NCBI GenBank assembly: GCA_041725955.1
Contig: JBGRQE010000010.1
Coordinates: 2,376 to 66,375 of the forward strand
Direction: 5' to 3'
DNA from: Bacteroidales bacterium
GTDB lineage: Bacteria; Bacteroidota; Bacteroidia; Bacteroidales; JBGRPZ01
DNA length: 64,000 bases
Shown here: piece by piece, positions 4,346 through 57,832 of the stretch
How the letters are laid out: the number at the start of each line of letters is the position of its first letter
How positions within the stretch are numbered: position 1 is the stretch's first letter
Program-made: the position numbers and the translations under genes
The notes under the pieces: generated by a model
The model's database searches: none
What the model saw: only the letters and a program-made list of their open reading frames with translations
What the model was told of the DNA's origin: nothing

Positions 4346-4991
4346 AAAATTAGTCCTTTCTTATTTTGGTGGGATCTTCTTTATTCTTTTTCTTATAGTT
4401 ATTTCTATTCGGATTTTTGGGTATTCGAATAAGGAATATAATCGAGATCTTGCAAAATTATCGGTGAAGCATTTTAGTTTAAATGATTTTTCTTATTTGA
4501 AGTGTGAAGGGATTAGTAACATTGAGGTTTACACTTCAGACTCCTCATATCTAAGAGTGAAATCATATAAAATTGGCGATACTCCAGAATTGGATTATAG
4601 CTATTGTAAGGACACATTGTGTTTGCCTTCTTTAAAAAATGTTGCAGGGAAGTCTTATGAAATTAAAGTATATGTAAATCTTAAGACGTTTAAAGGATTT
4701 ATTTCGAATGAATCGCATGTGTCTTGCTATAATATTAAATTATCGTCTTTAGAATATCATGGAACTCGTAGCGAGTTTTATTTTAATGGAGATTCTAAAC
4801 TAGATACTTTAATAGCAAAGGCCTCTAGATGTAAAATGTATTTGGGTGATAAGAATTTGAATATACAATCTTGTCAGCTAGATTTTGATAAAAGTAGATT
4901 GTGGGCCGTGGCACAACTAAAAGATATTCAAGGAATTTTAAAGAATGGTTCAATAATAAATTCTAATTGTAAAATTATAGACCCAAGTTAA
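4332..4991 (+). CDS. Membrane-anchored hypothetical protein, DUF2807/GIN-like (copy 2)
   Basis: N-terminal TM helix, then DFSYLKCEGISNIEV and beta-rich repeats. Overlaps the GntR stop, suggesting translational coupling. Confidence 0.5.
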   Translation: METSKKLVLSYFGGIFFILFLIVISIRIFGYSNKEYNRDLAKLSVKHFSLNDFSYLKCEGISNIEVYTSDSSYLRVKSYKIGDTPELDYSYCKDTLCLPSLKNVAGKSYEIKVYVNLKTFKGFISNESHVSCYNIKLSSLEYHGTRSEFYFNGDSKLDTLIAKASRCKMYLGDKNLNIQSCQLDFDKSRLWAVAQLKDIQGILKNGSIINSNCKIIDPS

Positions 4992-37815: not shown

Positions 37816-40800
37816 CTACTCAATAATTAAAATCTTTTTTTGAAGATGATGATTAGATAGTATACTAACAATATAAATTCCTGGGGTCCAGTTTGAAGTA
37901 GAGATATGTTCCTTACTATCTGGATTTTCCTTTGACCAAATAAGAGTCCCTATGCTATTCCAGATAAAGATTCTTTGAACATCGTTTTGTGTTTGGATAT
38001 TCACATTGTCGTTTGCAGGGTTTGGTATAATTTGTACAGAATTTCCTTTTATTTCGGAAAGCATTGTTGGTTTTGTCTTTTGTGTTAATGTAAAATTATG
38101 AATTTCTTCTCCATTAGGAAAAATGAATTTTACAGGAATAAGACATTGGCGATTTGTAGTTAAGGTGTTTTCTTGATAATCAATATTTACTTTCGTTTTT
38201 GAGTCTGAAGCTTCCTGATTTAAAGTTATCCAACTACAACTATTTTCTATGCTCGGGGCATTGGCTGCATTATGTTCTATAGAGAATTCAGTATTTCCTG
38301 CTTTGTAATCTACTTTTATTTGCTCTGGAACCAATTTAACTTCAAATGCAGCTTCCTTTTGAGTTACATTTAGAATAGCCTTTTTGTTGTCTGAGGTTGC
38401 AAAGACAATACTTGTTTCGCGGATTTTATGGATTTTGTTTTCTTGTACTTCGATAGAAATCTTTTGATTACCATTGCCTGAAGCAGGACTAACTGTCAAC
38501 CAATCTTGGTTGCTCGTTGCTGTCCATGTATCATTTGTGCTTAGATCAGCTTCTTTTTTGCCATCCTTTGCCTCGAAGTTTATCTTTTCTGGATTTATAG
38601 TGATTTCTGTAGTCTTTACTGCTTGCGAAAGCTTAAAGGTTTTAATCACATCTTTTGCTTGAATGGAAATAGTTGCCTCTCGGTCATTTTCGCCAGTATT
38701 TTCTTGATAGCTGACTGTAATTACACCGCTATTAATTCCTGTGTAGTTTACCAGACTTAACCAGTCGGCTCCATCGTCAATAGTTGCTTCAAAGTTAGTG
38801 TTTGAGGTTACTTCAATTTCTGTAGCTCCTGCTTGATAATTAACTTCTTGGTTTTCTGGGTCAATTTCCAGTTCAACAGGATGACTTTCTTGTTTTATAT
38901 TCACAAGAACAATAGTGCCATCATTAGCTTCAATACTGATATAAGATTCTCTTGCTTCAGTTATATTGTTGGCTTGACAAGTTACGGTTACAAGGGCATC
39001 ATTACTTCCTTCTGCAGGTTGAGTAGAGATCCAGTCTTCTGCCGGATTAATGATCCAATCCATATTGGCTGATATATTGAAGGTTTTGCTTTCTTCTTCA
39101 TATCCAAATTGTAATTCAGCGACATCAGCAAGAAGATGAGTTTCTACATGTCCATTAGGTTTTGATTTCCACAAACCTCGACCATAGGTGGCAGCAAAAA
39201 TCCAGTCATTATCTTTGTTATCGCCATAATGCATATCAAGTTCATATACCAATACGTTTGGCAAGCCATTGTTAAACTCTACCCAGTTTTGTTCTCCATC
39301 ACGGTAATAAATTCCAAAATCTGTAGCAGCATAAAGCTGTTGTTGGTTGGGATTGCGATGATATTCAAGCACACAGTTTACTGGAATTTCAGGAAGGCCT
39401 GCAGAGATATTCTTCCATGTAGCTCCTCCGTCAGTGGATTCATACACTCCATGAGCGTCGAATTGAGAAAGAGAAATCCATATGGTATTGGCATCATCAT
39501 TTTTTACAGTGATATACTCTATTTGCCTATAATAGCTTAGGCTCAATGGAATATTTGATGTTAAATCTTCCCAATTTTGACCGTTATCAGTGCTTTTTAA
39601 GATTTTACTCCTATAACCAATATAAATTGTATTGGTATCAGCAGGGCTCATCGCAATATGCTCAAGTTTACTGCTGTTGCCATTATACACGGTCTGATAT
39701 GAATTTCCCTGATCGAAAGATCTGTATAGCTTATTATATCCAATCCATAGTGTTTTAGGATTTACTGGATTGAGAGTGAATGGTGTAATCCACGCACCTT
39801 CTAAGTTTTCATAGGGTTTTATAAGAGTGCTGTTGTTCCATTTATTTTTAGTTCTTTTGATATTTCCATATTGTGACTCACCATATTGGGTATTTGGATC
39901 GGTATAGTCTACAGCACATTCCATACCATCTCCTCCCATTACTGTGTACCATTGCTTTGTTCCGCTGCGAAGAAAGGTGCCATTATCTTGTAATCCTGTT
40001 ACACATTGTTCTTTTTCATTTTGACAAACTCCCAATCGGTAAATTTGGCCAATAACTAGAGTGTTGGATAAATCTGTCCATGAATTTCCATTGTTGGTAC
40101 TTTTGTATATTCCTCCATCATTTCCTTCAAAAAGAGTTGAGGTTCCGGGTCGGAAAATCATTTCATGTTTGTCAGCGTGCACAGCTTCGGCACCACCACC
40201 TCCATACCAGTGATTTAGAAGTTCCCAGTTTTGACCACCATCAGTAGAACCCCAAGTGTTGATTCCTCCAATGTAAACCCGATTAGCATTTAAAGGATCT
40301 GCTGCGATAGTTAAATCGTACCAAGCTTGTCCATTATTAATACCTGTACCATCTGTACTATGATTTAGGAAATAGTTTCCATTGGCAGAACCATTTATAA
40401 TTTGTGAGAAGGTTTCACCTGAATCGGTAGATTTATAAATACCCTTTAGTCCACTACTCGAATTGGCGACAACTGCATAAATGACATCACTATCATCAGC
40501 AGATACAGCGATTTCAGTTCTGTAGCCACCTGAAATATCCATTTTTTTCACCCAACTTTCTCCGGCATTTATACTTTTATATATATCACCCTCTGGTGTT
40601 GAACCATACATAATTTGAGGATTATTAGGGTTGAATTCCATATCCACAAATCGAGAAGAAGTTTTTTTTGTCCATACAGCATCATTACCATCAGATATAT
40701 ATAGCCCTTCTGATGTAGAAGCATATATCTTTGAAGGTGTTCCTGGATATGCAAGTAGTTTATAGGCCCTAACTCCTTGTGAAGTTGCAAAACTTAAACC

Positions 40801-41499
40801 TGTTGTACTCCAATCTTCTCCGCCGCTTGTAGATTTTAGTATTCCACAGGAAGGAGTATCTCCAGCATCTTTATCTCCTGTTGCAATATAAATAGTATTG
40901 TCTGTTGCAAAATCTTCACTTACTAATATACTGCTTACTCCGATTGAAGTCATATTATCGGTGGTGGTGATCCAGTTATTTCCGGCATCTGTTGATTTCC
41001 AAAATCCTCCTGAAGGAGTACCTAGGTAAAGGATGTTTTCATCGCTTGGGTTAAAAGCAATACAGTTTACTCTTCCCAATCCGTTGTAACCTCCAACTGT
41101 GGTTTTTGTACCCACAGATTCCCAAATCACATTGCTTCGAGTTGATGGTCTTTTTTCTCGAATTAAGTACTGATTGATATCAGGATATTTTCCTGTTTTA
41201 GGATCAACTCTAGCTTCCCATTTAAATTCGTAGCGTCTGAACTGTTTAAATCCAGGCATTTTAGCTTTTTCACCATCAATTTTGTAATACCCATCAGTAA
41301 TACCTCTTTGATTGCAATAGCTGTTAAAGGCTTTCTGTTTTTCAGAGAAACTTAAATTGTCAGGATTTTCTAGATAGTTTACTTGGTTTTTCTTTTGGGA
41401 TCTTTCAGGATTATTTTTTTGATATTCGTCAATCCATGCTTGTCCAAAGCTTAAGTTTGAGGCCAGAATTAATATAATGATTGGCCATAGGTTTCGCAT
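37816..41499 (-). CDS. Secreted BNR/VPS10-like beta-propeller protein with four BACON domains and a T9SS CTD
   Basis: Many S-x-D-x-G-x-x-W Asp-box repeats (KSTDAGNNW, KSINAGESW, KSTDNGQNW), four W...DW...N.....R...Q BACON-like repeats, C-terminal IIPNPA...PGIYIVSI. Confidence 0.85.
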   Translation of the reverse strand: MRNLWPIIILILASNLSFGQAWIDEYQKNNPERSQKKNQVNYLENPDNLSFSEKQKAFNSYCNQRGITDGYYKIDGEKAKMPGFKQFRRYEFKWEARVDPKTGKYPDINQYLIREKRPSTRSNVIWESVGTKTTVGGYNGLGRVNCIAFNPSDENILYLGTPSGGFWKSTDAGNNWITTTDNMTSIGVSSILVSEDFATDNTIYIATGDKDAGDTPSCGILKSTSGGEDWSTTGLSFATSQGVRAYKLLAYPGTPSKIYASTSEGLYISDGNDAVWTKKTSSRFVDMEFNPNNPQIMYGSTPEGDIYKSINAGESWVKKMDISGGYRTEIAVSADDSDVIYAVVANSSSGLKGIYKSTDSGETFSQIINGSANGNYFLNHSTDGTGINNGQAWYDLTIAADPLNANRVYIGGINTWGSTDGGQNWELLNHWYGGGGAEAVHADKHEMIFRPGTSTLFEGNDGGIYKSTNNGNSWTDLSNTLVIGQIYRLGVCQNEKEQCVTGLQDNGTFLRSGTKQWYTVMGGDGMECAVDYTDPNTQYGESQYGNIKRTKNKWNNSTLIKPYENLEGAWITPFTLNPVNPKTLWIGYNKLYRSFDQGNSYQTVYNGNSSKLEHIAMSPADTNTIYIGYRSKILKSTDNGQNWEDLTSNIPLSLSYYRQIEYITVKNDDANTIWISLSQFDAHGVYESTDGGATWKNISAGLPEIPVNCVLEYHRNPNQQQLYAATDFGIYYRDGEQNWVEFNNGLPNVLVYELDMHYGDNKDNDWIFAATYGRGLWKSKPNGHVETHLLADVAELQFGYEEESKTFNISANMDWIINPAEDWISTQPAEGSNDALVTVTCQANNITEARESYISIEANDGTIVLVNIKQESHPVELEIDPENQEVNYQAGATEIEVTSNTNFEATIDDGADWLSLVNYTGINSGVITVSYQENTGENDREATISIQAKDVIKTFKLSQAVKTTEITINPEKINFEAKDGKKEADLSTNDTWTATSNQDWLTVSPASGNGNQKISIEVQENKIHKIRETSIVFATSDNKKAILNVTQKEAAFEVKLVPEQIKVDYKAGNTEFSIEHNAANAPSIENSCSWITLNQEASDSKTKVNIDYQENTLTTNRQCLIPVKFIFPNGEEIHNFTLTQKTKPTMLSEIKGNSVQIIPNPANDNVNIQTQNDVQRIFIWNSIGTLIWSKENPDSKEHISTSNWTPGIYIVSILSNHHLQKKILIIE

Positions 41500-42131: not shown

Positions 42132-45100
42132 TTATTTTCCTTGCAACATTTCCCAATAGTTATAAAGACCGTCGTTTAGACGTTTTTCTTTTTCTTCAGG
42201 ACTTAATTTCAACCAGCGTTCACGAGCTTCTTCATGTTTTCTGCGTTCTGCAGCTTCCTTAGCTTCTATTTTCTCATTGAATTCATCTTCAATTTTTCGC
42301 TTAAGGAATCCTTTTGCAACAGCAGGGAACAACTCAAGGAGTAGTTTTTCCTTTTCGTTTTTAGCAAGATGAGCACCACCAAACTCTTCAAAAACAGGAT
42401 TTTCTTGTTCTTTATAGTTTGAGGTATCATACTCACGCTCGTCGCTATGACCGCAGATCAATTCACGGAATTTAGGGTCGATATCTATAGGTGTTTTTCC
42501 ATAGTAACCTTTTACCAAGTTTATAAACTGAGAGGTTTTATTTGAATAGGCTGGTCGGCCATTTTCTAAATCAACTACACAGTTTACCGCTTGTGCACCC
42601 ACTATCTGAGAAGAAGGGGTTACCAATGGAGGGCAACCTGCAGCAACACGAACCTCTGGCACCATTTGAAGTACTCTTCCAAGAAGATGATCGAGTTGTA
42701 ATTGCTTAAGCTGTGCCAACATATTGGTATACATACCACCTGGAATTTCTGCAGCTTTTACTTCTTCATTACCCATAGGGAAATTGAAGTACTTTTCGAT
42801 TTGACTGGTAACATCCAAAAGTTCGTGTTCTTTATCGGCTTTTGCTAATTGAATAGCTCTGTCGAATAGGGCATCAATATCTTTTGGAAGATCTTCCCAT
42901 GTAATATCAAACTCACGAGGGAACATTTTATAACTGTCAAATTCGGCAATATCTTCACGAATTTGGTGAAGCTCTTTGTTGATTTTTACTACTGCATCAA
43001 GATTTACTCCTGTATCCAAACCAAGTTTGTCGGCAAAGATTTGAATAATCTCGAATGAAGGAGCAGCAGCACCACCCGCAAAGTTCATTATATTGGTATC
43101 TACGATATCTACACCATTTATTATAGCCATAATTACAGAGGCTAATCCGTAACCAGGCGTACAGTGAGTGTGGAAATCAATAGGGATACTTAATTCTTTT
43201 TTGAACATGCGTACCAATTTTCCAGACATGCTTGGTGGAATTAATCCTGCCATATCTTTTATGGAAATCATATCTGCACCCAAGGCTTCCATTTGCTTTG
43301 CTTTATCAAGGAAGTATTCTTCGGTGAAGACTTTTTTTGGTAGGCTACGACCTTTAAAGAAAGCCTTAAGTCTTTGTTTGCGTGTAAACTTAGGGTCTAC
43401 AGTATAGCAAACTGCACAGTCTGCAATACCACCAGCTTTCTTTATATATTTGATGGTCGACTTCATATTGTCAACATCGTTCAAGCAATCGAATATTCGC
43501 ATAATGCCAATACCAGACTTTACTGCAAGGGTATTAAACCCTTCAATAACATTTTCTGGATAAGGATTGTATCCGAATAAGTTACGTCCACGAGATAGGG
43601 CAGTTAGCTTAGATACATTTCCGATTTCTTTTTTGATGCTTTCCAATCGATACCATGGATCTTCGTTTAAGTAGCGCATTACTGAGTCAGGAACAGCACC
43701 ACCCCAAACTTCCATAGCATAAAAGTTGGCATCTTTATAAAAAGGAAGTACTTTATCTATATCTTTTTGAGGAACACGGGTAGCAAATAAAGACTGTTGA
43801 CCATCACGAAGGGTAAGGTCACGAATCTTTAGTTTACCATTGAACTTCATCTTTGCTCTGGCTGCTTTTTTCTCTGCTTTTTTCTTTTCGATAAGAATAG
43901 CTTTTTCTTCCTTACGCTTATTATGTAGGAATCCTTTTGCAACAGCAGGGAAAAGCTCGAGCAATAGCTCTTCTTTTTCGTCAGAAGCAAGTTTCTTTCC
44001 GTATTCTTCTAATACCGGATTATCTTGTTTTTTATAATTAGCAGTATCATAATCCTGTGCATCGCGGTGTCCACAAATCTTTTCACGGAAATTTGGATCA
44101 ATATCGATAGGTGTTTTTCCATATTCACCTTTTACCAAATTGTGGAATTGGTTGGAAACATTGGTATACCATGGGCGGTCATTTACTTCATCAACCACAC
44201 AGTTTACTGCTTGCGATCCGACAATCTGAGAAGAAGGAGTTACCAATGGAGGGCAACCAGAATCGAGACGTACTTTGGGTACAGCTTCCAATACACGGCT
44301 AAGTAGATGATCCAGACGTAATTGCTTTAGCTGTGCTAGCATATTGGTGTACATTCCGCCAGGAATTTCAGCTCTTTTTACTTCTTCATTAGGAGCCGCA
44401 AAATTGAAGTACTTCTCAATTTCGTGAACTACAACAAGAAGCTCATCTTCTTCTTTTTGATCTTTTAGCGACTTGGCTAATTCAATAGCACGGTCGAACA
44501 TAGCTTCAACCTTCTTTGGAAGATTTCCTTTTCTAACATCAAATTCAATTGGGAACTGCTTAGATGTATCGAATTCGGATAATTCTTCACGGATGGTTTT
44601 TAGTTCTTGATTGATCTTGTAAACAGCATCAAGGTCGACATCTAAATCGTAACCAAGTTTCTTGGCGAAGATGTAGATTAGTTCGAATGCAGGAGCAGCA
44701 GGGCCGCCAGCAAAGTTCATCATATTGGTATCAACAATGTCGACACCATGAACCAATGCAGTTACATATGCAGCAAGACCATATCCTGGAGTACAGTGGG
44801 TGTGAAAATCAATAGGAACTTTTATTTCCTCTTTTAGGCGTTTGATGATTGCTCCTGCACTTAGCGGAGTAACCAAACCTGCCATATCTTTTAAGGAAAT
44901 CATATCTGCCCCTAAAGCTTCCATTTCCTTGGCTTTGTTCAGGAAGTAGTCTACCGTAAAAATAGGCTCAGGTCCTTCACCTTCAGGAAAAACAGGATCC
45001 ACAGTATAACACACTGCACAATCGGCTAGACCACCAGCTTCTTTGATATATTTGATGGTGGATTTCATATTATCGACGTCGTTCAAACAATCGAAAATAC

Positions 45101-45446
45101 GCATGATTCCTATACCCGATTTTACTGCATTAAAATTAAAACCTTTAATAACGCTCTCTGGATAAGGATTGTAGCCGAAAAGGTTACGCCCTCTTGACAA
45201 AGCAGTTAGATATGATATATCCCCTATTTCTTTCTTTATAGATTCGAGACGATACCAGGGATCTTCACCAAGAAAACGCATTACAGAGTCCGGTACAGCT
45301 CCCCCCCAAACTTCCATTGCGTAAAAATTAGCCTTTTTGTATAGTGGCAAAACGCGTTCAACTTGTTCTTGACGCATTCTTGTTGCAAACATAGACTGTT
45401 GACCATCTCGGAGGCTAAGATCTCTGATTAATAATTTCTTTTTCAT
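42132..45446 (-). CDS. Tandem double carboxyltransferase (OadA/PycB-type HMGL-like + PYC_OADA, two copies) without a biotinyl domain
   Basis: RDGQQS.FATR, MEVWGGA, IS.KDMAG, DFHTHCTPGYG, EIPGGMYTN and PPLVTPSSQIVG each occur twice. No AMKM motif anywhere. Confidence 0.9.
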   Translation of the reverse strand: MKKKLLIRDLSLRDGQQSMFATRMRQEQVERVLPLYKKANFYAMEVWGGAVPDSVMRFLGEDPWYRLESIKKEIGDISYLTALSRGRNLFGYNPYPESVIKGFNFNAVKSGIGIMRIFDCLNDVDNMKSTIKYIKEAGGLADCAVCYTVDPVFPEGEGPEPIFTVDYFLNKAKEMEALGADMISLKDMAGLVTPLSAGAIIKRLKEEIKVPIDFHTHCTPGYGLAAYVTALVHGVDIVDTNMMNFAGGPAAPAFELIYIFAKKLGYDLDVDLDAVYKINQELKTIREELSEFDTSKQFPIEFDVRKGNLPKKVEAMFDRAIELAKSLKDQKEEDELLVVVHEIEKYFNFAAPNEEVKRAEIPGGMYTNMLAQLKQLRLDHLLSRVLEAVPKVRLDSGCPPLVTPSSQIVGSQAVNCVVDEVNDRPWYTNVSNQFHNLVKGEYGKTPIDIDPNFREKICGHRDAQDYDTANYKKQDNPVLEEYGKKLASDEKEELLLELFPAVAKGFLHNKRKEEKAILIEKKKAEKKAARAKMKFNGKLKIRDLTLRDGQQSLFATRVPQKDIDKVLPFYKDANFYAMEVWGGAVPDSVMRYLNEDPWYRLESIKKEIGNVSKLTALSRGRNLFGYNPYPENVIEGFNTLAVKSGIGIMRIFDCLNDVDNMKSTIKYIKKAGGIADCAVCYTVDPKFTRKQRLKAFFKGRSLPKKVFTEEYFLDKAKQMEALGADMISIKDMAGLIPPSMSGKLVRMFKKELSIPIDFHTHCTPGYGLASVIMAIINGVDIVDTNIMNFAGGAAAPSFEIIQIFADKLGLDTGVNLDAVVKINKELHQIREDIAEFDSYKMFPREFDITWEDLPKDIDALFDRAIQLAKADKEHELLDVTSQIEKYFNFPMGNEEVKAAEIPGGMYTNMLAQLKQLQLDHLLGRVLQMVPEVRVAAGCPPLVTPSSQIVGAQAVNCVVDLENGRPAYSNKTSQFINLVKGYYGKTPIDIDPKFRELICGHSDEREYDTSNYKEQENPVFEEFGGAHLAKNEKEKLLLELFPAVAKGFLKRKIEDEFNEKIEAKEAAERRKHEEARERWLKLSPEEKEKRLNDGLYNYWEMLQGK

Positions 45447-45961: not shown

Positions 45962-46654
45962 ATGCTTATGAAAAATATAGTAGTGCTTAGTGGAGCAGGA
46001 GTGAGTGCAGAAAGTGGGGTAAAAACTTTTCGAGATTCTGGTGGACTATGGGAAAATCATAGAGTAGAAGATGTTGCAACACCCGAAGCTTGGGAACGTA
46101 ATCCGCAATTGGTAAATGAGTTTTATAATCAAAGACGAAAACAGCTCTTTGATGTTGCTCCCAACAAGGGGCATATAGCTTTGGCACGTCTTGAGAATAA
46201 GTATAAGGTTAATGTGGTTACTCAAAATGTTGACGACTTGCATGAACGTGGAGGAAGTAGTGATGTTTTACATCTTCATGGAGAACTCAAGAAGGTTAGA
46301 AGTACTGGAGATGAAAACTTGGTTTATAAGCTTGATGGATGGGAATTGAAATTGGGAGATTTGTGTGAAAAGGGTTTTCAGTTGCGTCCACATATTGTAT
46401 GGTTCGGCGAGGCAGTGCCAAATATTGTTCCTGCTGCTGATATTTGTTCTAATGCCGATATTATGATCGTCGTAGGAACGAGTTTGAATGTTTATCCTGC
46501 TGCAGGATTGGTTGATTACGCTCCAAAACATTGTAAAATATATCTTGTAGACCCAAATACAGATCTAAAACCCAGATATCGTAATTTGGAAATTATTTAT
46601 AAACTTGCCGGAGAGGGATTACCTGATTTGGTGGATCGTTTGATGGAGGAATAA
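45962..46654 (+). CDS. cobB: NAD-dependent protein deacylase (sirtuin)
   Basis: GAGVSAESG.KTFR, TQNVDDLHERGG, HLHG, RPHIVWFGE, GTSLNVYPAA. Confidence 0.93.
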   Translation: MLMKNIVVLSGAGVSAESGVKTFRDSGGLWENHRVEDVATPEAWERNPQLVNEFYNQRRKQLFDVAPNKGHIALARLENKYKVNVVTQNVDDLHERGGSSDVLHLHGELKKVRSTGDENLVYKLDGWELKLGDLCEKGFQLRPHIVWFGEAVPNIVPAADICSNADIMIVVGTSLNVYPAAGLVDYAPKHCKIYLVDPNTDLKPRYRNLEIIYKLAGEGLPDLVDRLMEE

Positions 46655-47241: not shown

Positions 47242-48618
47242 TTAGATCTTATCCAATTCAACAGTGAAGTGACGTAAGATTGGAGCTTCTTTGGTAATTT
47301 TTAAACCAGTATTGATCTGACCTCTGCGCTCAAATACATTAGCAAGAGTAGCTGCAATATAATCCATATGGTTGTTGGTATATACTCTTCTTGGAATAGC
47401 TAAACGCAATAACTCTAATTCAGGATAACGGTTTTCGCGAGTTACAGGATCACGGTCAGCAAGGATAGATCCAATTTCAACACCACGAATACCTCCTTCT
47501 AGATAAGCTTCTATTGCTAAGGTTTGTGCAATAAAATGCTCTTTTGGTAGCTGAGGTAAGAAACGCTTAGCATCAACAAAGATAGCATGACCTCCAAATG
47601 GATACTGTACAGGTACACCATACTCTTGAAGCTTTTTACCCAAGTACGCAACTTGCTCGATACGAGTTTCAAGATAATCGAACTCAGTACCTTCGTCAAG
47701 ACCTACAGCCAAAGCATTCATGTCACGACCAGACATACCACCATAAGTAATATATCCTTCGAACATAATATTGTAAACAGTAGCTTTTTGATAGGTTTCT
47801 TCATCACGGAAAGCAATGAAACCACCCATATTTACGATAGCATCCTTTTTAGAACTCATGGTCATGCCATCAGCATAAGAATACATTTCTTTCACAATTT
47901 CTTTGATGGTTTTATCTCCATAGCCATGCTCACGTTTTTTGATGAAGTATGCATTTTCAGCAAAACGAGCAGAATCAAAGATAACTCTAACGCCATATTT
48001 CTTAGCAATCTCGCTTACACCGCGGATGTTTTCCATAGATACAGGCTGGCCACCAGAAGTATTACATGTTACAGTAACGATGATACAAGGAACTTTCTCG
48101 ATAGGAGTGTTCTTAAGTGTATCTTCTAGTTTTTCAAGGTTAAGATTACCTTTAAATGGGTGATCGATAGTAGTATCGAAAGCCTCATCGATGGTAACAT
48201 CAACAGCAGAAGCTTTTCTGAACTCGATATGACCTTTGGTAGTGTCAAAGTGAGAGTTACCAGGAACAACATCTCCTTCATTGATCAATACGCTGAAAAG
48301 TACGTTCTCAGCAGCACGACCTTGGTGAGTAGGTAGGAAATAATCAAATCCTAGAATCTCTTTGATCGCATTTTTCATGTTGTAGAAAGACCTTGCTCCA
48401 GCATAGCTTTCGTCACCTGTCATCATAGCAGCCCATTGGCGGTCGCTCATTGCACCAGTACCAGAATCGGTTAAAAGGTCAATAAGAACTTGTTCGCTTT
48501 TTAGGTTGAATAGGTTATACTTAGCTTCTTTAATCCACTGAATACGTTCTTCTTTAGTACTTTTACGAATGGGTTCAACCATCTTGATTTTGTACGCTTC
48601 TACAAAAGGTAATTCCAT
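47242..48618 (-). CDS. tnaA: Tryptophanase
   Basis: DLLTDSGT, THQGR, MSSKKD (PLP Lys). HFDTT, GVEIG and LRHFT are tryptophanase-type residues, versus FTTT, MERG and LRFFT in tyrosine phenol-lyase. Confidence 0.93.
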   Translation of the reverse strand: MELPFVEAYKIKMVEPIRKSTKEERIQWIKEAKYNLFNLKSEQVLIDLLTDSGTGAMSDRQWAAMMTGDESYAGARSFYNMKNAIKEILGFDYFLPTHQGRAAENVLFSVLINEGDVVPGNSHFDTTKGHIEFRKASAVDVTIDEAFDTTIDHPFKGNLNLEKLEDTLKNTPIEKVPCIIVTVTCNTSGGQPVSMENIRGVSEIAKKYGVRVIFDSARFAENAYFIKKREHGYGDKTIKEIVKEMYSYADGMTMSSKKDAIVNMGGFIAFRDEETYQKATVYNIMFEGYITYGGMSGRDMNALAVGLDEGTEFDYLETRIEQVAYLGKKLQEYGVPVQYPFGGHAIFVDAKRFLPQLPKEHFIAQTLAIEAYLEGGIRGVEIGSILADRDPVTRENRYPELELLRLAIPRRVYTNNHMDYIAATLANVFERRGQINTGLKITKEAPILRHFTVELDKI

Positions 48619-55358: not shown

Positions 55359-57599
55359 TTATTCTTCGATTTCAGCAGCTTCGATTTCAGCAGCTTCACC
55401 TTTAGGTTCTCCTTTTATAATTGTCATTTCTTCGATAAGGTTTTTTGCACCAGCATATTTATCGATTATGAAAAGAACATAACGAGCGTCAACACAAATG
55501 GTACGTTGCAATTCTGGTTCAAATGCAATATCACCACTCATTGCTTCCCAGTTGCCATCGAATGCGATACCAATCAATTCACCACGACCATTAATTACAC
55601 CAGAACCAGAGTTACCACCAGTAATATCGTTGGTAGTAAGGAAACAGGTAACTAGTTCACCATTTTCGTCAGCATATTGTCCGTAATCTTTATTGTTAAT
55701 TAAATCAACAAGTTTTCCTGGAACAACAAATTCTGGATTGTCTTTATCTTCTTTTTCAAGTATACCTTGAGTAGTTGTGATAAAGTCATAATGAACGGCA
55801 TCTGCAGGGTAATAATCCTGAACACTACCATAAGTTACACGCATAGTAGAGTTTGCATTAGGGTAGAATTTCTTTGCAGGTTCCATTTTTCTTAAACCAG
55901 CAATAAATAAGCGATTTCCTTTTTCTATCTTAGGACTTGCACTTCTGTAAGGGCCAACCACTGAAATTACTTTGTTGTAGAATGCTTGCATTAATTGGTA
56001 TGCAGGATCTTTCTCAATTTTCTTCAATGATGGTTTTGCCAATAGTTTATCTACTTTTTCTGGAGTAGTAAAGTTAGATTTTTCAAATACATATTCTGTA
56101 TAAGCATTCCAGTCATTTTTAAACTTTTTGGCCATTTCAACCAAATATTCAGGTTGTTTGCTGCTCTTAATGTTTTGTGTATAGACTTTAAGAAGAGCTG
56201 CCATTACATTTTTATCAGCAACAAGACTATATTCCTTAAAGTGCTCATCTTTGTTTTTTGAAATGGCTTCTGCAGTTTTTGCAATCTTTTCTTTATCCTT
56301 CTTTTTCTTCTTAAGAAGTTGTGCTAAACCAGCAAATTCTTGTGCATAAGCAGTTAGTTCAGTTCCGTTTAGTCCACAAAGACTAGCAAAATATAATTCA
56401 GCTAGAGCTTTATCCTGAGTTTTATATCCTTCTTCAATAAGGTTTAATGCCTCACCATACATTTTTTGACGCTCAGGATCTGCAGCAACCCATTTACGAA
56501 ATTTGTTTTCGATACCTAATTTTTTATCATAAATTTTAAGTCTCTTAAGACCTTTAGATTGACCAATTAGATATTTCCAAGAGTTTGCAGTACTTGCATA
56601 TTTTGATGCATATTGAATGCGAACAGCAGGATCTGCGTCCATAGCTTTTTTCCATGCAGCTAATTTAGCGCCGAAAGCGTCGATAACTACTGGATTCTTT
56701 TTGTTTATGTTAGATTCAACACCATATGAGGTTAAATAACGATCAGTAGATCCTGGATATCCCCAAATCATAGCATAATCATCCTTTTCAACTCCGTTAA
56801 GAGAAACAGGAAGATGCCATTTTGGTTGATAAGGTTTATTTTCTTTTGAGTAATTTGCAGGTTCGCCATTAGCATCAGCATATACACGGAAAATAGAGAA
56901 ATCACCAGTATGACGTGGCCACATCCAGTTGTCGGTATCACCACCAAACTTACCAACAGATGAAGGAGGTGCACCTACCAGACGAACATCAGTATAAGTT
57001 TTGTAAACAAACATATAAAACTCGTTACCACCGAAGAAACCTTTAACTACAGGATTTAATTTACCATCTGTAGAAGCGCTTTTTTCTAAACGAGTTTTGA
57101 TTTCGTTAATTTTCTCAGCTCTTTCTTCCTCAGTCATATCAGCATTTAAATGAGGAACGATACTATCTGTAACGTTTTCAATACGCTGAAGGAATGAAGC
57201 ACTTAAGCCTTCGTTAGCAAGTTCTTCATTCATTTTATATGCCCAAAAACCATCTTTTAGGTAATCGTGCTCAACAGTACTATGATTTTGAATTGCATCA
57301 TAACCGCAATGGTGGTTGGTAAACATAAGACCTTTACCAGAAACAATTTCTCCAGAACAGAAAAAGCCACGAGGTTTTGCTCCATGACTAAGTCCAACGA
57401 TAGCATCTTTTAGTGAAGAATTATTTATACTGTAGATTTCTTCTGGGGTAAGCTGAAGCCCCATTTTTTGCATATCAGTATAATTTAAGCGCTCAACAAA
57501 AAGAGGCAACCACATTCCCTCATCTGGAAGAGGATTTGCTTTGGTCATTCCTAAACCAGCAGCAAGGAATAAAATGAAAGATAGAAGTGTTTTTTTCAT
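55359..57599 (-). CDS. S46 family dipeptidyl peptidase, DPP7 type
   Basis: DEGMWLP, FTNHHC, NWMWPRHTGDF, DITGGNSGS. FDGNWE has Gly as in DPP7, versus FDRNWE in DPP11. Confidence 0.93.
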   Translation of the reverse strand: MKKTLLSFILFLAAGLGMTKANPLPDEGMWLPLFVERLNYTDMQKMGLQLTPEEIYSINNSSLKDAIVGLSHGAKPRGFFCSGEIVSGKGLMFTNHHCGYDAIQNHSTVEHDYLKDGFWAYKMNEELANEGLSASFLQRIENVTDSIVPHLNADMTEEERAEKINEIKTRLEKSASTDGKLNPVVKGFFGGNEFYMFVYKTYTDVRLVGAPPSSVGKFGGDTDNWMWPRHTGDFSIFRVYADANGEPANYSKENKPYQPKWHLPVSLNGVEKDDYAMIWGYPGSTDRYLTSYGVESNINKKNPVVIDAFGAKLAAWKKAMDADPAVRIQYASKYASTANSWKYLIGQSKGLKRLKIYDKKLGIENKFRKWVAADPERQKMYGEALNLIEEGYKTQDKALAELYFASLCGLNGTELTAYAQEFAGLAQLLKKKKKDKEKIAKTAEAISKNKDEHFKEYSLVADKNVMAALLKVYTQNIKSSKQPEYLVEMAKKFKNDWNAYTEYVFEKSNFTTPEKVDKLLAKPSLKKIEKDPAYQLMQAFYNKVISVVGPYRSASPKIEKGNRLFIAGLRKMEPAKKFYPNANSTMRVTYGSVQDYYPADAVHYDFITTTQGILEKEDKDNPEFVVPGKLVDLINNKDYGQYADENGELVTCFLTTNDITGGNSGSGVINGRGELIGIAFDGNWEAMSGDIAFEPELQRTICVDARYVLFIIDKYAGAKNLIEEMTIIKGEPKGEAAEIEAAEIEE

Positions 57600-57832
57600 C
57601 TCTATGTTAAATTAATTCAAGGTCAACCTTATGGGCATTATGTAGTGTTTTGTACATGTAAATGACATCATTTGGTTGACTATTAAGTTTATTTTGAATG
57701 TTAAAGTTCTTTTTTATTTTTCCTTATAGCTAAACTAACCGCTTTAAAATTATATGAACAAAAAAGCGGTTAGTTTTCATTATTAGTATGTCAACCTTTT
57801 TATAATATCCAAAAAAACCTTATGCTAATACC

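Follow-up and report, generated by a model that had tools for sequence, protein, structure and literature searches.

In the 64,000-nucleotide stretch of a Bacteroidales bacterium genome studied here (GenBank assembly GCA_041725955.1, contig JBGRQE010000010.1, positions 2,376 to 66,375 of the forward strand; below, the window), one gene encodes a protein with two complete carboxyltransferase (CT) modules joined head to tail and no biotinyl domain. The fusion is real, conserved and not an artefact, and the tandem CT is a rare fused derivative of a widespread single-module family. The protein is likely to be a biotin-dependent CT whose modules pair as a pseudo-dimer and whose biotin carrier is supplied in trans. 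As to its role, we lean towards a covalent pseudo-dimeric, 5S-like transcarboxylase subunit that would draw on a free biotin carrier belonging to the Mmd system. What is new is a covalent chain of two modules with one putative docking tail; the class of enzyme and the use of a carrier in trans are already known. The literature searched yielded no paper on a tandem PYC_OADA carboxyltransferase and none characterising a biotin-less CT of Bacteroidota.

Gene and domain architecture

The tandem CT gene is a single open reading frame (ORF) of 1104 codons, as seen in the ORF list and the translation. It lies on the minus strand, which the earlier note on this DNA, made from the sequence alone, had not stated. 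Pfam finds two HMGL-like and two PYC_OADA domains in the 1104-aa protein, all above the cut-offs, which bears out the two full CT modules described in that note. No match to Biotin_lipoyl was obtained, and the sequence contains neither the AMKM motif, as had been observed, nor any other xMKM biotinylation motif. The gene and its parts are as follows.

42132..45446, minus strand: whole tandem CT gene, stop codon at 42132-42134 (ORF list, Pfam)
43950..45446, minus strand: N-terminal CT module, residues 1-499 (alignments to 5KS8_C and 2NX9, AlphaFold2 (AF2) secondary structure, Foldseek)
43851..43949, minus strand: inter-module linker, residues 500-532, 33 aa (AF2 helix 500-531, homolog spacing)
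42327..43850, minus strand: C-terminal CT module, residues 533-1040 (BLASTP between halves, tree of halves)
42135..42326, minus strand: C-terminal tail, residues 1041-1104 (alignment with single-module forms and forms carrying a biotin carboxyl carrier protein (BCCP) domain, AF2 helices)
45393..45410, minus strand: RDGQQS of the N-half, residues 13-18, with R13, metal ligand D14 and Q17 (invariant in 46/46 N-halves)
43791..43808, minus strand: RDGQQS of the C-half, residues 547-552, with R547, D548 and Q551 (invariant in 46/46 C-halves)
44877..44891, minus strand: KDMAG of the N-half, residues 186-190, with K186, the predicted carbamylated metal-bridging lysine (invariant)
43245..43259, minus strand: KDMAG of the C-half, residues 730-734, with K730 (invariant)
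44796..44804, minus strand: HTH metal ligands of the N-half, residues 215-217, H215 and H217 (both His invariant)
43164..43172, minus strand: HTH metal ligands of the C-half, residues 759-761, H759 and H761 (invariant)
44235..44243, minus strand: VTP of the N-half, with T403 (invariant in 46/46)
42615..42623, minus strand: VTP of the C-half, with T943 (invariant in 46/46)

The N-terminal module consists of a TIM barrel and a PYC_OADA domain; within it, residues ~295-352 form a family-specific insert of some 55 aa. The C-terminal tail comprises a long charged helix and, beyond it, the conserved distal motif LSPEEKEKRLNDGLYNYW. All motifs quoted in the earlier note (RDGQQS, KDMAG, HTH and PPLVTP, the last present in the N-half and in the C-half) were recovered in both halves, and the translation likewise holds the quoted linker between the modules, KRKEEKAILIEKKKAEKKAARAK, Met533, and the loop that differs between the halves (VFPEGEGPEP in the N-half versus KFTRKQRLKAFFKGRSLPKK). 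In BLASTP between the halves, residues 1-532 and 533-1104 align end to end with 69% amino acid and 70.6% nucleotide identity; the duplication is therefore old and no assembly repeat, in agreement with the earlier assessment. A tblastn search of the whole 64-kb window revealed no homologs of OadB, OadG, 12S CT, biotin carrier or biotin carboxylase (BC), so the reported absence of oadB, oadG and BC genes nearby holds.

Reality and distribution of the fusion

In a search of 5.8 billion proteins, about 50 protein clusters match the tandem CT over its full length at 63-86% identity with the same four-domain architecture; they are annotated either as 'hypothetical protein' or as 'pyruvate/oxaloacetate carboxyltransferase'. 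Among the 49 matches longer than 1000 aa, 46 are full-length homologs carrying both modules. In addition, a scan of species-representative genomes gave 23 tandem loci in named genome records, many of them cultured isolates, including Labilibaculum manganireducens, L. filiforme, L. euxinus, Marinifilum fragile JCM 15579, M. flexuosum DSM 21950, M. breve, Ancylomarina spp. and Prolixibacteraceae JC049. A genome of the same genus (G092) has the gene at 86% identity. From the last conserved motif of module 1 to the first strand of module 2 there are 37 residues in 42 of the 44 measurable homologs; the remaining two have 34. This segment is basic in every homolog measured.

The uninterrupted frame is borne out by G092, by the 46 full-length homologs and by the 23 named-genome loci. 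That two paralogs were joined by a sequencing error, or that the second half is translated on its own from Met533, is barely credible. Met533 is indeed followed by KFNGKLKIRD, resembling the protein's own N-terminus as the earlier note pointed out, and RefSeq lists 644-646-aa 'carboxylase' products within the tandem genes of Ancylomarina. However, the frame runs unbroken through 46 homologs of independent origin (assemblies and isolates), the linker keeps a constant length, and about 30% of the nucleotides differ between the halves. Met533 itself is not conserved and is absent in most lineages, so that there is no conserved internal start. The 644-aa calls start within the N-half and match the C-terminal part of the tandem protein residue for residue.

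The 644-646-aa entries were also considered as a separate single-module paralog in Ancylomarina, which was rejected on the same identity and their start inside the N-half tail. These RefSeq/UniRef entries (P0051-P0053, from A. salipaludis, A. euxinus and Ancylomarina sp. 16SWW S1-10-2; loci L071 and L120) are N-terminally truncated calls of a 1147-1149-aa tandem gene, with a Met in the tail of module 1 taken as the start, and annotation is inconsistent between pipelines. The closest homolog, P0002 (86%; L061, JBGRPZ010000037.1), lies on a contig of a metagenome-assembled genome labelled 'Hyphomicrobiales bacterium'. Outside this case the family is restricted to Bacteroidota, and type IX secretion system (T9SS) and BACON genes occur in the window; the label probably reflects an error of binning or taxonomy.

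Parent family and origin of the tandem

Among 301 genomes of the order to which the window genome belongs, the tandem form was found in four (the window genome G000, G092, G289 and G033), a single-module biotin-less form of ~565-600 aa in about 60, and a form uniting CT and BCCP (CT+BCCP) in about 21. The single-module forms had been hidden by the length filter of the first protein search; with the C-half alone as query they are abundant, 563-590 aa long and named 'carboxylase'. They align to the C-half of the tandem through the whole C-terminal tail. In the 20 single-form loci compared, this tail is a long charged helix followed by LSxEEKxxRLxxGLYNYxW. In both tandem and single forms it sits where the sister CT+BCCP proteins have an EAMKM biotinyl domain. 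The absence of a biotin domain, singled out in the earlier note, is thus confirmed as such, but it is the norm in a large Bacteroidota single-module family, as it is in transcarboxylase 5S, and no peculiarity of this protein: that surprise dissolves into a known pattern, and the new feature is the fusion. One single-form CT, a protein of 550 aa ending in …EKYEKAFS (L118, CAWHOW010000049.1), appears to have no distal tail motif.

The proximal tail helix of the first copy corresponds to the linker of the tandem, and the distal motif is kept in the C-half alone. In a tree of the separate halves, 42 of the 46 N-halves form one clade with support of 99, and the C-halves cluster with the tail-bearing single-module CTs, to which the C-half is the nearer half. 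The topology is consistent with one old fusion, and the origin by gene duplication and fusion proposed earlier is thereby supported. The N-halves of the subgroup to which the window protein belongs (P0001, P0002, P0003 and P0005) nest among the C-halves, outside the main N-half clade. In a sliding-window comparison they are mosaic, C-like at residues ~200-300 and N-like at ~350-425, and the window lineage has in addition a 10-residue deletion in the N-half loop (VFPEGEGPEP). This pattern suggests partial intragenic gene conversion in the N-half of this lineage. An independent second fusion in the window lineage is disfavoured, as the mosaic makes partial intragenic conversion more likely.

The proposed course of events would start from a single-module CT without biotin domain, about 570 aa long and normally a homodimer. 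Its gene would have been duplicated and the copies fused head to tail, with the helical first part of the tail of copy 1 becoming a rigid linker of fixed length. The product would be a covalent pseudo-dimer in which both active sites work and one C-terminal docking tail remains.

Catalytic residues and family assignment

Catalytic residues were assigned by alignment to Vibrio cholerae OadA (2NX9) and Methylobacillus flagellatus PycB (5KS8). D14 matches D17 of V. cholerae OadA, and K186 aligns with the KDMAG lysine of both structures. Residues R13, D14, Q17, R85, Y92, K186, H215, H217 and T403 are invariant in 46/46 N-halves and their counterparts in 46/46 C-halves; the central residue of the HTH motif is T or S among the homologous N-halves. 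We take T403 and T943 to be the equivalents of the catalytic proton-shuttle threonine of pyruvate carboxylase. Judged by these residues, both modules look catalytically active. The idea of possibly specialised halves accordingly finds little support, since all catalytic residues are invariant in both and the only clear asymmetry is the distal tail motif of the C-half.

Two features set the family apart from the characterised enzymes: RDGQQS, with Gln where those enzymes have His (RDxHQS), and the ~55-residue insert between barrel and PYC_OADA domain in each module. Both are also found in the sister clade with a genuine EAMKM biotinyl domain and are therefore no sign of lost biotin dependence.

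The best NCBIfam models for the tandem CT are pyruvate carboxylase subunit B, OadA and transcarboxylase 5S, the scores being sums over both modules. On this summed scale the oadA equivalog TIGR01108 is missed (731.5 versus a cut-off of 756.5), and NF010644 (PycB) is nominally reached (734.9 versus 734) solely through the summing. The tandem CT is thus a member of the PYC_OADA carboxyltransferase superfamily that would be most 5S-like in its working but fails the 5S, the OadA and, per module, the PycB equivalogs. Where OadA has a C-terminal association domain and a covalent BCCP, the tandem CT has the charged helix with LSxEEK...GLYNYxW, and the OadB and OadG genes with which OadA is encoded occur neither in the window nor beside any tandem homolog. 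PycB combines CT and BCCP in one chain and has PycA as partner; the tandem has no BCCP and no adjacent BC. With 5S it shares the lack of an own biotinyl domain and the presence of a 12S-type CT and a small carrier in the same genome (contigs C8 and C48).

Predicted structure

The CT domains of 5S, OadA and pyruvate carboxylase are dimers. AF2, run on the alignment of 46 sequences, gave a model of the tandem CT with a mean predicted local distance difference test score (pLDDT) of 89.8 and a predicted template modelling score (pTM) of 0.70. In this model one continuous helix makes up the linker (residues 500-531, with pLDDT of about 91) and two helices the tail (1041-1079 and 1083-1101). In Foldseek, where each half matches 5S, OadA and PycB, the best match is the Propionibacterium shermanii transcarboxylase 5S, with a template modelling (TM) score of 0.84, followed by PycB and OadA; TM is 0.90 to the CT of V. 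cholerae OadA, and the probability is 1.00 to 5S, PycB, OadA and pyruvate carboxylase. The known dimeric CTs, the rigid linker of constant length, with its fixed 37-residue segment, and the moderately high pTM make the pseudo-dimer of two modules in one chain, which the earlier note had put forward, plausible as a model. The C-terminal tail is a candidate docking element.

Biotin-dependent systems of the window genome and its relatives

The tandem CT is the only PYC_OADA gene of the window genome. The genome-wide search for stand-alone carriers and OadB that had been recommended returned three small stand-alone carriers and one OadB, along with four 12S-type CTs, in line with the earlier expectation that a carrier would be supplied in trans. 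The only OadB belongs to an mmd cluster on contig C48 (epimerase, MmdA, OadG-like protein, the 143-aa carrier MmdC at 4388-4819, and MmdB). Further clusters are one of BC, carrier and 12S and one that is MCC-like. There are two biotin carboxylases, and both BC genes are clustered with their own 12S-type CT; a 502-aa AccC is encoded on contig C59, and the genome has a BC-BCCP fusion. On contig C8 (57337-59248, outside the window) a 515-aa 12S-type CT is paired with a 116-aa biotin carrier (57337-57687), with no BC or pump nearby. Orthologs of this orphan pair occur in L056, L058 and L114; the carrier is 113-116 aa long with a conserved N-terminal extension (…YLNRKPY…), and the 12S protein is 81-82% identical across distant genomes.

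Among the related genomes, the biotin-less CT is kept in G057 (98% complete, in 5 contigs) and in G045 (also 98% complete), and neither contains OadB or, in a PF02785 scan, a biotin carboxylase. Both retain epimerase, MmdA, OadG-like protein and carrier (G057, C2:771000-788000, L057; G045, C15:1-14000, L059), and mmdB is cleanly deleted, with a 27-bp gap after the carrier gene; in G057 the gap is followed by the uridine kinase gene that comes directly after MmdB in the genome of the window. The orphan 12S and carrier pair is also kept in both, at 81-82% identity. With OadB and BC missing, a 5S-type CT is the sole route by which carboxybiotin made by the 12S-type CT could be turned over, which amounts to a transcarboxylase, and a 'decarboxylase' could not pump Na+ there.

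Neighbourhoods are uninformative for most single forms and for CT+BCCP forms, and CT was never next to BC in about 115 loci examined. In one lineage, however, the CT is transcribed divergently from mmdA of a complete mmdA-oadG-carrier-mmdB operon across a spacer of 154-281 bp; the four genomes concerned, with CTs 90-95% identical, are counted as one independent case. In L118 the CT lies 2 kb from an epimerase-MmdA-OadG-carrier operon, with no match to MmdB within the 19.6-kb locus, and in a third lineage it lies 5 kb from the orphan 12S and carrier pair. Together, gene linkage and gene content tie the family to the Mmd-type biotin system.

Proposed function and alternative explanations

In the function that we favour, the tandem CT would exchange CO2 with biotin on a separate carrier, MmdC and/or the 116-aa carrier paired with the orphan 12S-type CT. 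Together with a 12S-type CT (MmdA or a paralog) it would most likely catalyse (S)-methylmalonyl-CoA + pyruvate <-> propionyl-CoA + oxaloacetate and so serve the succinate-propionate fermentation pathway. Where MmdB exists, as in the window genome, the Na+ pump may alternatively decarboxylate the same carboxybiotin pool. A precedent is the mmc operon of Pelotomaculum, which joins Mmd alpha, epsilon and gamma subunits with a 5S subunit (PMC8892533).

Several observations weigh against a transcarboxylase. The methylmalonyl-CoA carboxytransferase 5S equivalog NF008984 is missed (587.5 bits versus a cut-off of 827, even summed over the two modules), and synteny shows no conserved neighbours of the tandem CT in any tandem-bearing genome. 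Matches resembling the C8-type carrier occur in 238/301 genomes, at an E-value threshold that also lets in other small carriers; this carrier is far commoner than the biotin-less CT and hence independent of it. The window genome itself has MmdB and two BCs, so that the argument by elimination from G057 and G045 does not apply to it directly. OadB is present in 59/64 genomes with biotin-less CT and in 153/216 of the rest (p = 2e-4, not corrected for phylogeny), an enrichment that fits an oxaloacetate decarboxylase as well. Finally, propionyl-CoA formation in Xylanibacter and B. thetaiotaomicron has been ascribed to a decarboxylase and not a transcarboxylase (PMC11575231, PMC8865466); that work treats only the 12S, carrier and pump loci (PMC11575231, PMC8865466).

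One alternative, in keeping with the OadA framing of the earlier note, is a Na+-translocating oxaloacetate decarboxylase in which the tandem CT would act as alpha-type subunit, with MmdC, the OadG-like protein and the MmdB pump taken over from the methylmalonyl-CoA decarboxylase: oxaloacetate would carboxylate biotin on the shared carrier, and MmdB would decarboxylate it while pumping Na+. The window genome does have one OadB/MmdB together with a carrier and an OadG-like gene, the CT of one lineage is divergent from the complete mmd operon, OadA models are among the best NCBIfam matches with a TM of 0.90 to V. cholerae OadA CT, and OadB is found not only in most genomes with biotin-less CT but in 21/21 CT+BCCP genomes. 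The co-occurrence is nevertheless uncorrected for phylogeny and enriched without being obligatory, and it cannot separate the two models. Five genomes with biotin-less CT are wholly without OadB, and the two near-complete ones described above lost mmdB cleanly and kept the CT. The association domain and BCCP of OadA are missing, and TIGR01108 is not reached even with two modules summed. On the gene content of G057 and G045 and the mmd linkage we regard this role as doubtful and a 5S-like transcarboxylase as the more likely one. The multi-subunit pyruvate carboxylase, in which AccC (502 aa, C59) would use ATP to carboxylate a free carrier and the CT would pass the CO2 on to pyruvate, is very unlikely. 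The top NCBIfam and PDB sequence matches are pyruvate carboxylase subunit B, and the window genome has both a BC, carrier and 12S cluster and a BC-BCCP fusion; but G057 and G045 retain the CT without any biotin carboxylase, both BC genes of the window genome sit with a 12S-type CT of their own, and the adjacency of CT and BC was seen at none of the loci.

A biotin-independent enzyme, either a metal-dependent oxaloacetate decarboxylase or another HMGL-like lyase or aldolase with an unrelated role for the tail, is improbable. It would account for the missing carrier domain, for the lack of a linked carrier gene in most genomes, for RDGQQS in place of the RDxHQS of characterised CTs and for the family-specific insert in each module. 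RDGQQS and the insert, however, are shared with the EAMKM-bearing sister clade and are thus unlinked to biotin loss, and the Thr and Tyr of the biotin-dependent carboxyl transfer of pyruvate carboxylase are invariant. Because sister proteins with identical motifs carry an EAMKM domain at the position of the tail, the CT should depend on biotin despite having no carrier domain. The linkage to the mmd operon and the retention beside an orphaned MmdA and carrier indicate a biotin cycle, and the classical 5S, too, is carrier-less yet biotin-dependent.

A wider form of the transcarboxylase proposal, which we put forward only tentatively, is that the Bacteroidales Mmd complex might be a three-way carboxybiotin hub, in which a 12S-type CT (methylmalonyl-CoA), a 5S-type CT (pyruvate/oxaloacetate) and, where present, the MmdB Na+ pump all serve one free carrier. 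Such a hub would allow switching among transcarboxylation, methylmalonyl-CoA decarboxylation and oxaloacetate decarboxylation. The conserved tail would then be the docking element, and the tandem, with one tail per CT dimer, an obligatorily asymmetric pseudo-dimer.

Comparison with known systems

The closest characterised counterpart is the P. shermanii 5S (EC 2.1.3.1; PDB 1RQB/1RQH), the best Foldseek match, which has the same fold, conserves the metal ligands, the carbamyl-lysine and the catalytic residues, and is likewise without a biotinyl domain, its carrier (1.3S) and 12S CT being separately encoded. The identity is only about 30%, however, and 5S is a dimer of single modules, whereas the tandem CT has two modules in one chain. 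The tandem also differs from 5S by RDGQQS in place of RDAHQS, by a ~55-aa insert in each module and by its conserved C-terminal tail, which is absent from 5S, and its gene, unlike that of the classical 5S, is not clustered with 12S and 1.3S genes.

The direct parent family is the single-module Bacteroidota form (about 565-580 aa), 64-76% identical to the C-half of the tandem, with the same motifs, insert, C-terminal tail and stand-alone gene; it goes under the names of 'carboxylase' (NCBI) and 'pyruvate/oxaloacetate carboxyltransferase' (JGI). Its dimer presumably has two tails, while the tandem has one, the other having been converted to the linker. The Bacteroidales CT+BCCP proteins (615-635 aa; 'biotin/lipoyl-containing protein' or PycB/OadA-like) form the sister clade at 55-68% identity and share RDGQQS, the insert and the stand-alone gene, but they have a single module and carry the EAMKM biotinyl domain at the position of the tail. 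The CT fold and the catalytic residues recur in V. cholerae OadA (2NX9) and M. flagellatus PycB (5KS8); each of these two has a BCCP of its own and a gene adjoining those of its partner subunits, neither of which holds for the tandem, and OadA has in addition an association domain for OadG that the tandem does not possess. The same logic as proposed here is seen in the mmc operon of Pelotomaculum thermopropionicum, which combines a 12S-type MmdA, a small carrier and a 5S-type CT (mmcL) with no beta pump (PMC8892533). There the genes form one operon and the 5S is single-module, whereas the tandem CT is unlinked and duplicated.

Significance

To our knowledge, all structurally characterised pyruvate-type carboxyltransferases (5S, OadA and the CT domain of pyruvate carboxylase) are homodimers. 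A natural single-chain pseudo-dimer would permit the two active sites to be mutated separately, which is impossible in a homodimer, and such mutants would test whether the sites act independently, in alternation or cooperatively with a swinging biotin carrier. The gene is experimentally accessible, because cultured Labilibaculum, Marinifilum and Ancylomarina carry it. The parent family, widespread, stand-alone, biotin-less and with a conserved tail, raises the prospect that many Bacteroidales may make propionyl-CoA via a transcarboxylase, alone or alongside the decarboxylase. If so, the assumptions on energy yield and CO2 balance in models of propionate fermentation in sediment and gut would change.

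Neighbouring genes in the window

A scan for sigma-70 promoters and terminators gave counts no higher than the shuffled expectation; Bacteroidota promoters lie outside the coverage of the scan. On the minus strand at 37816-41499, a 1227-aa secreted protein has three BACON domains, an F510_1955-like glycosylhydrolase region and a T9SS sorting tail, and at 47242-48618, also on the minus strand, a tryptophanase scores 870 bits against the NCBIfam TnaA equivalog, above its cut-off of 750. Both neighbours are unrelated to biotin enzymes. A Sir2/CobB deacylase is encoded on the plus strand at 45962-46654.

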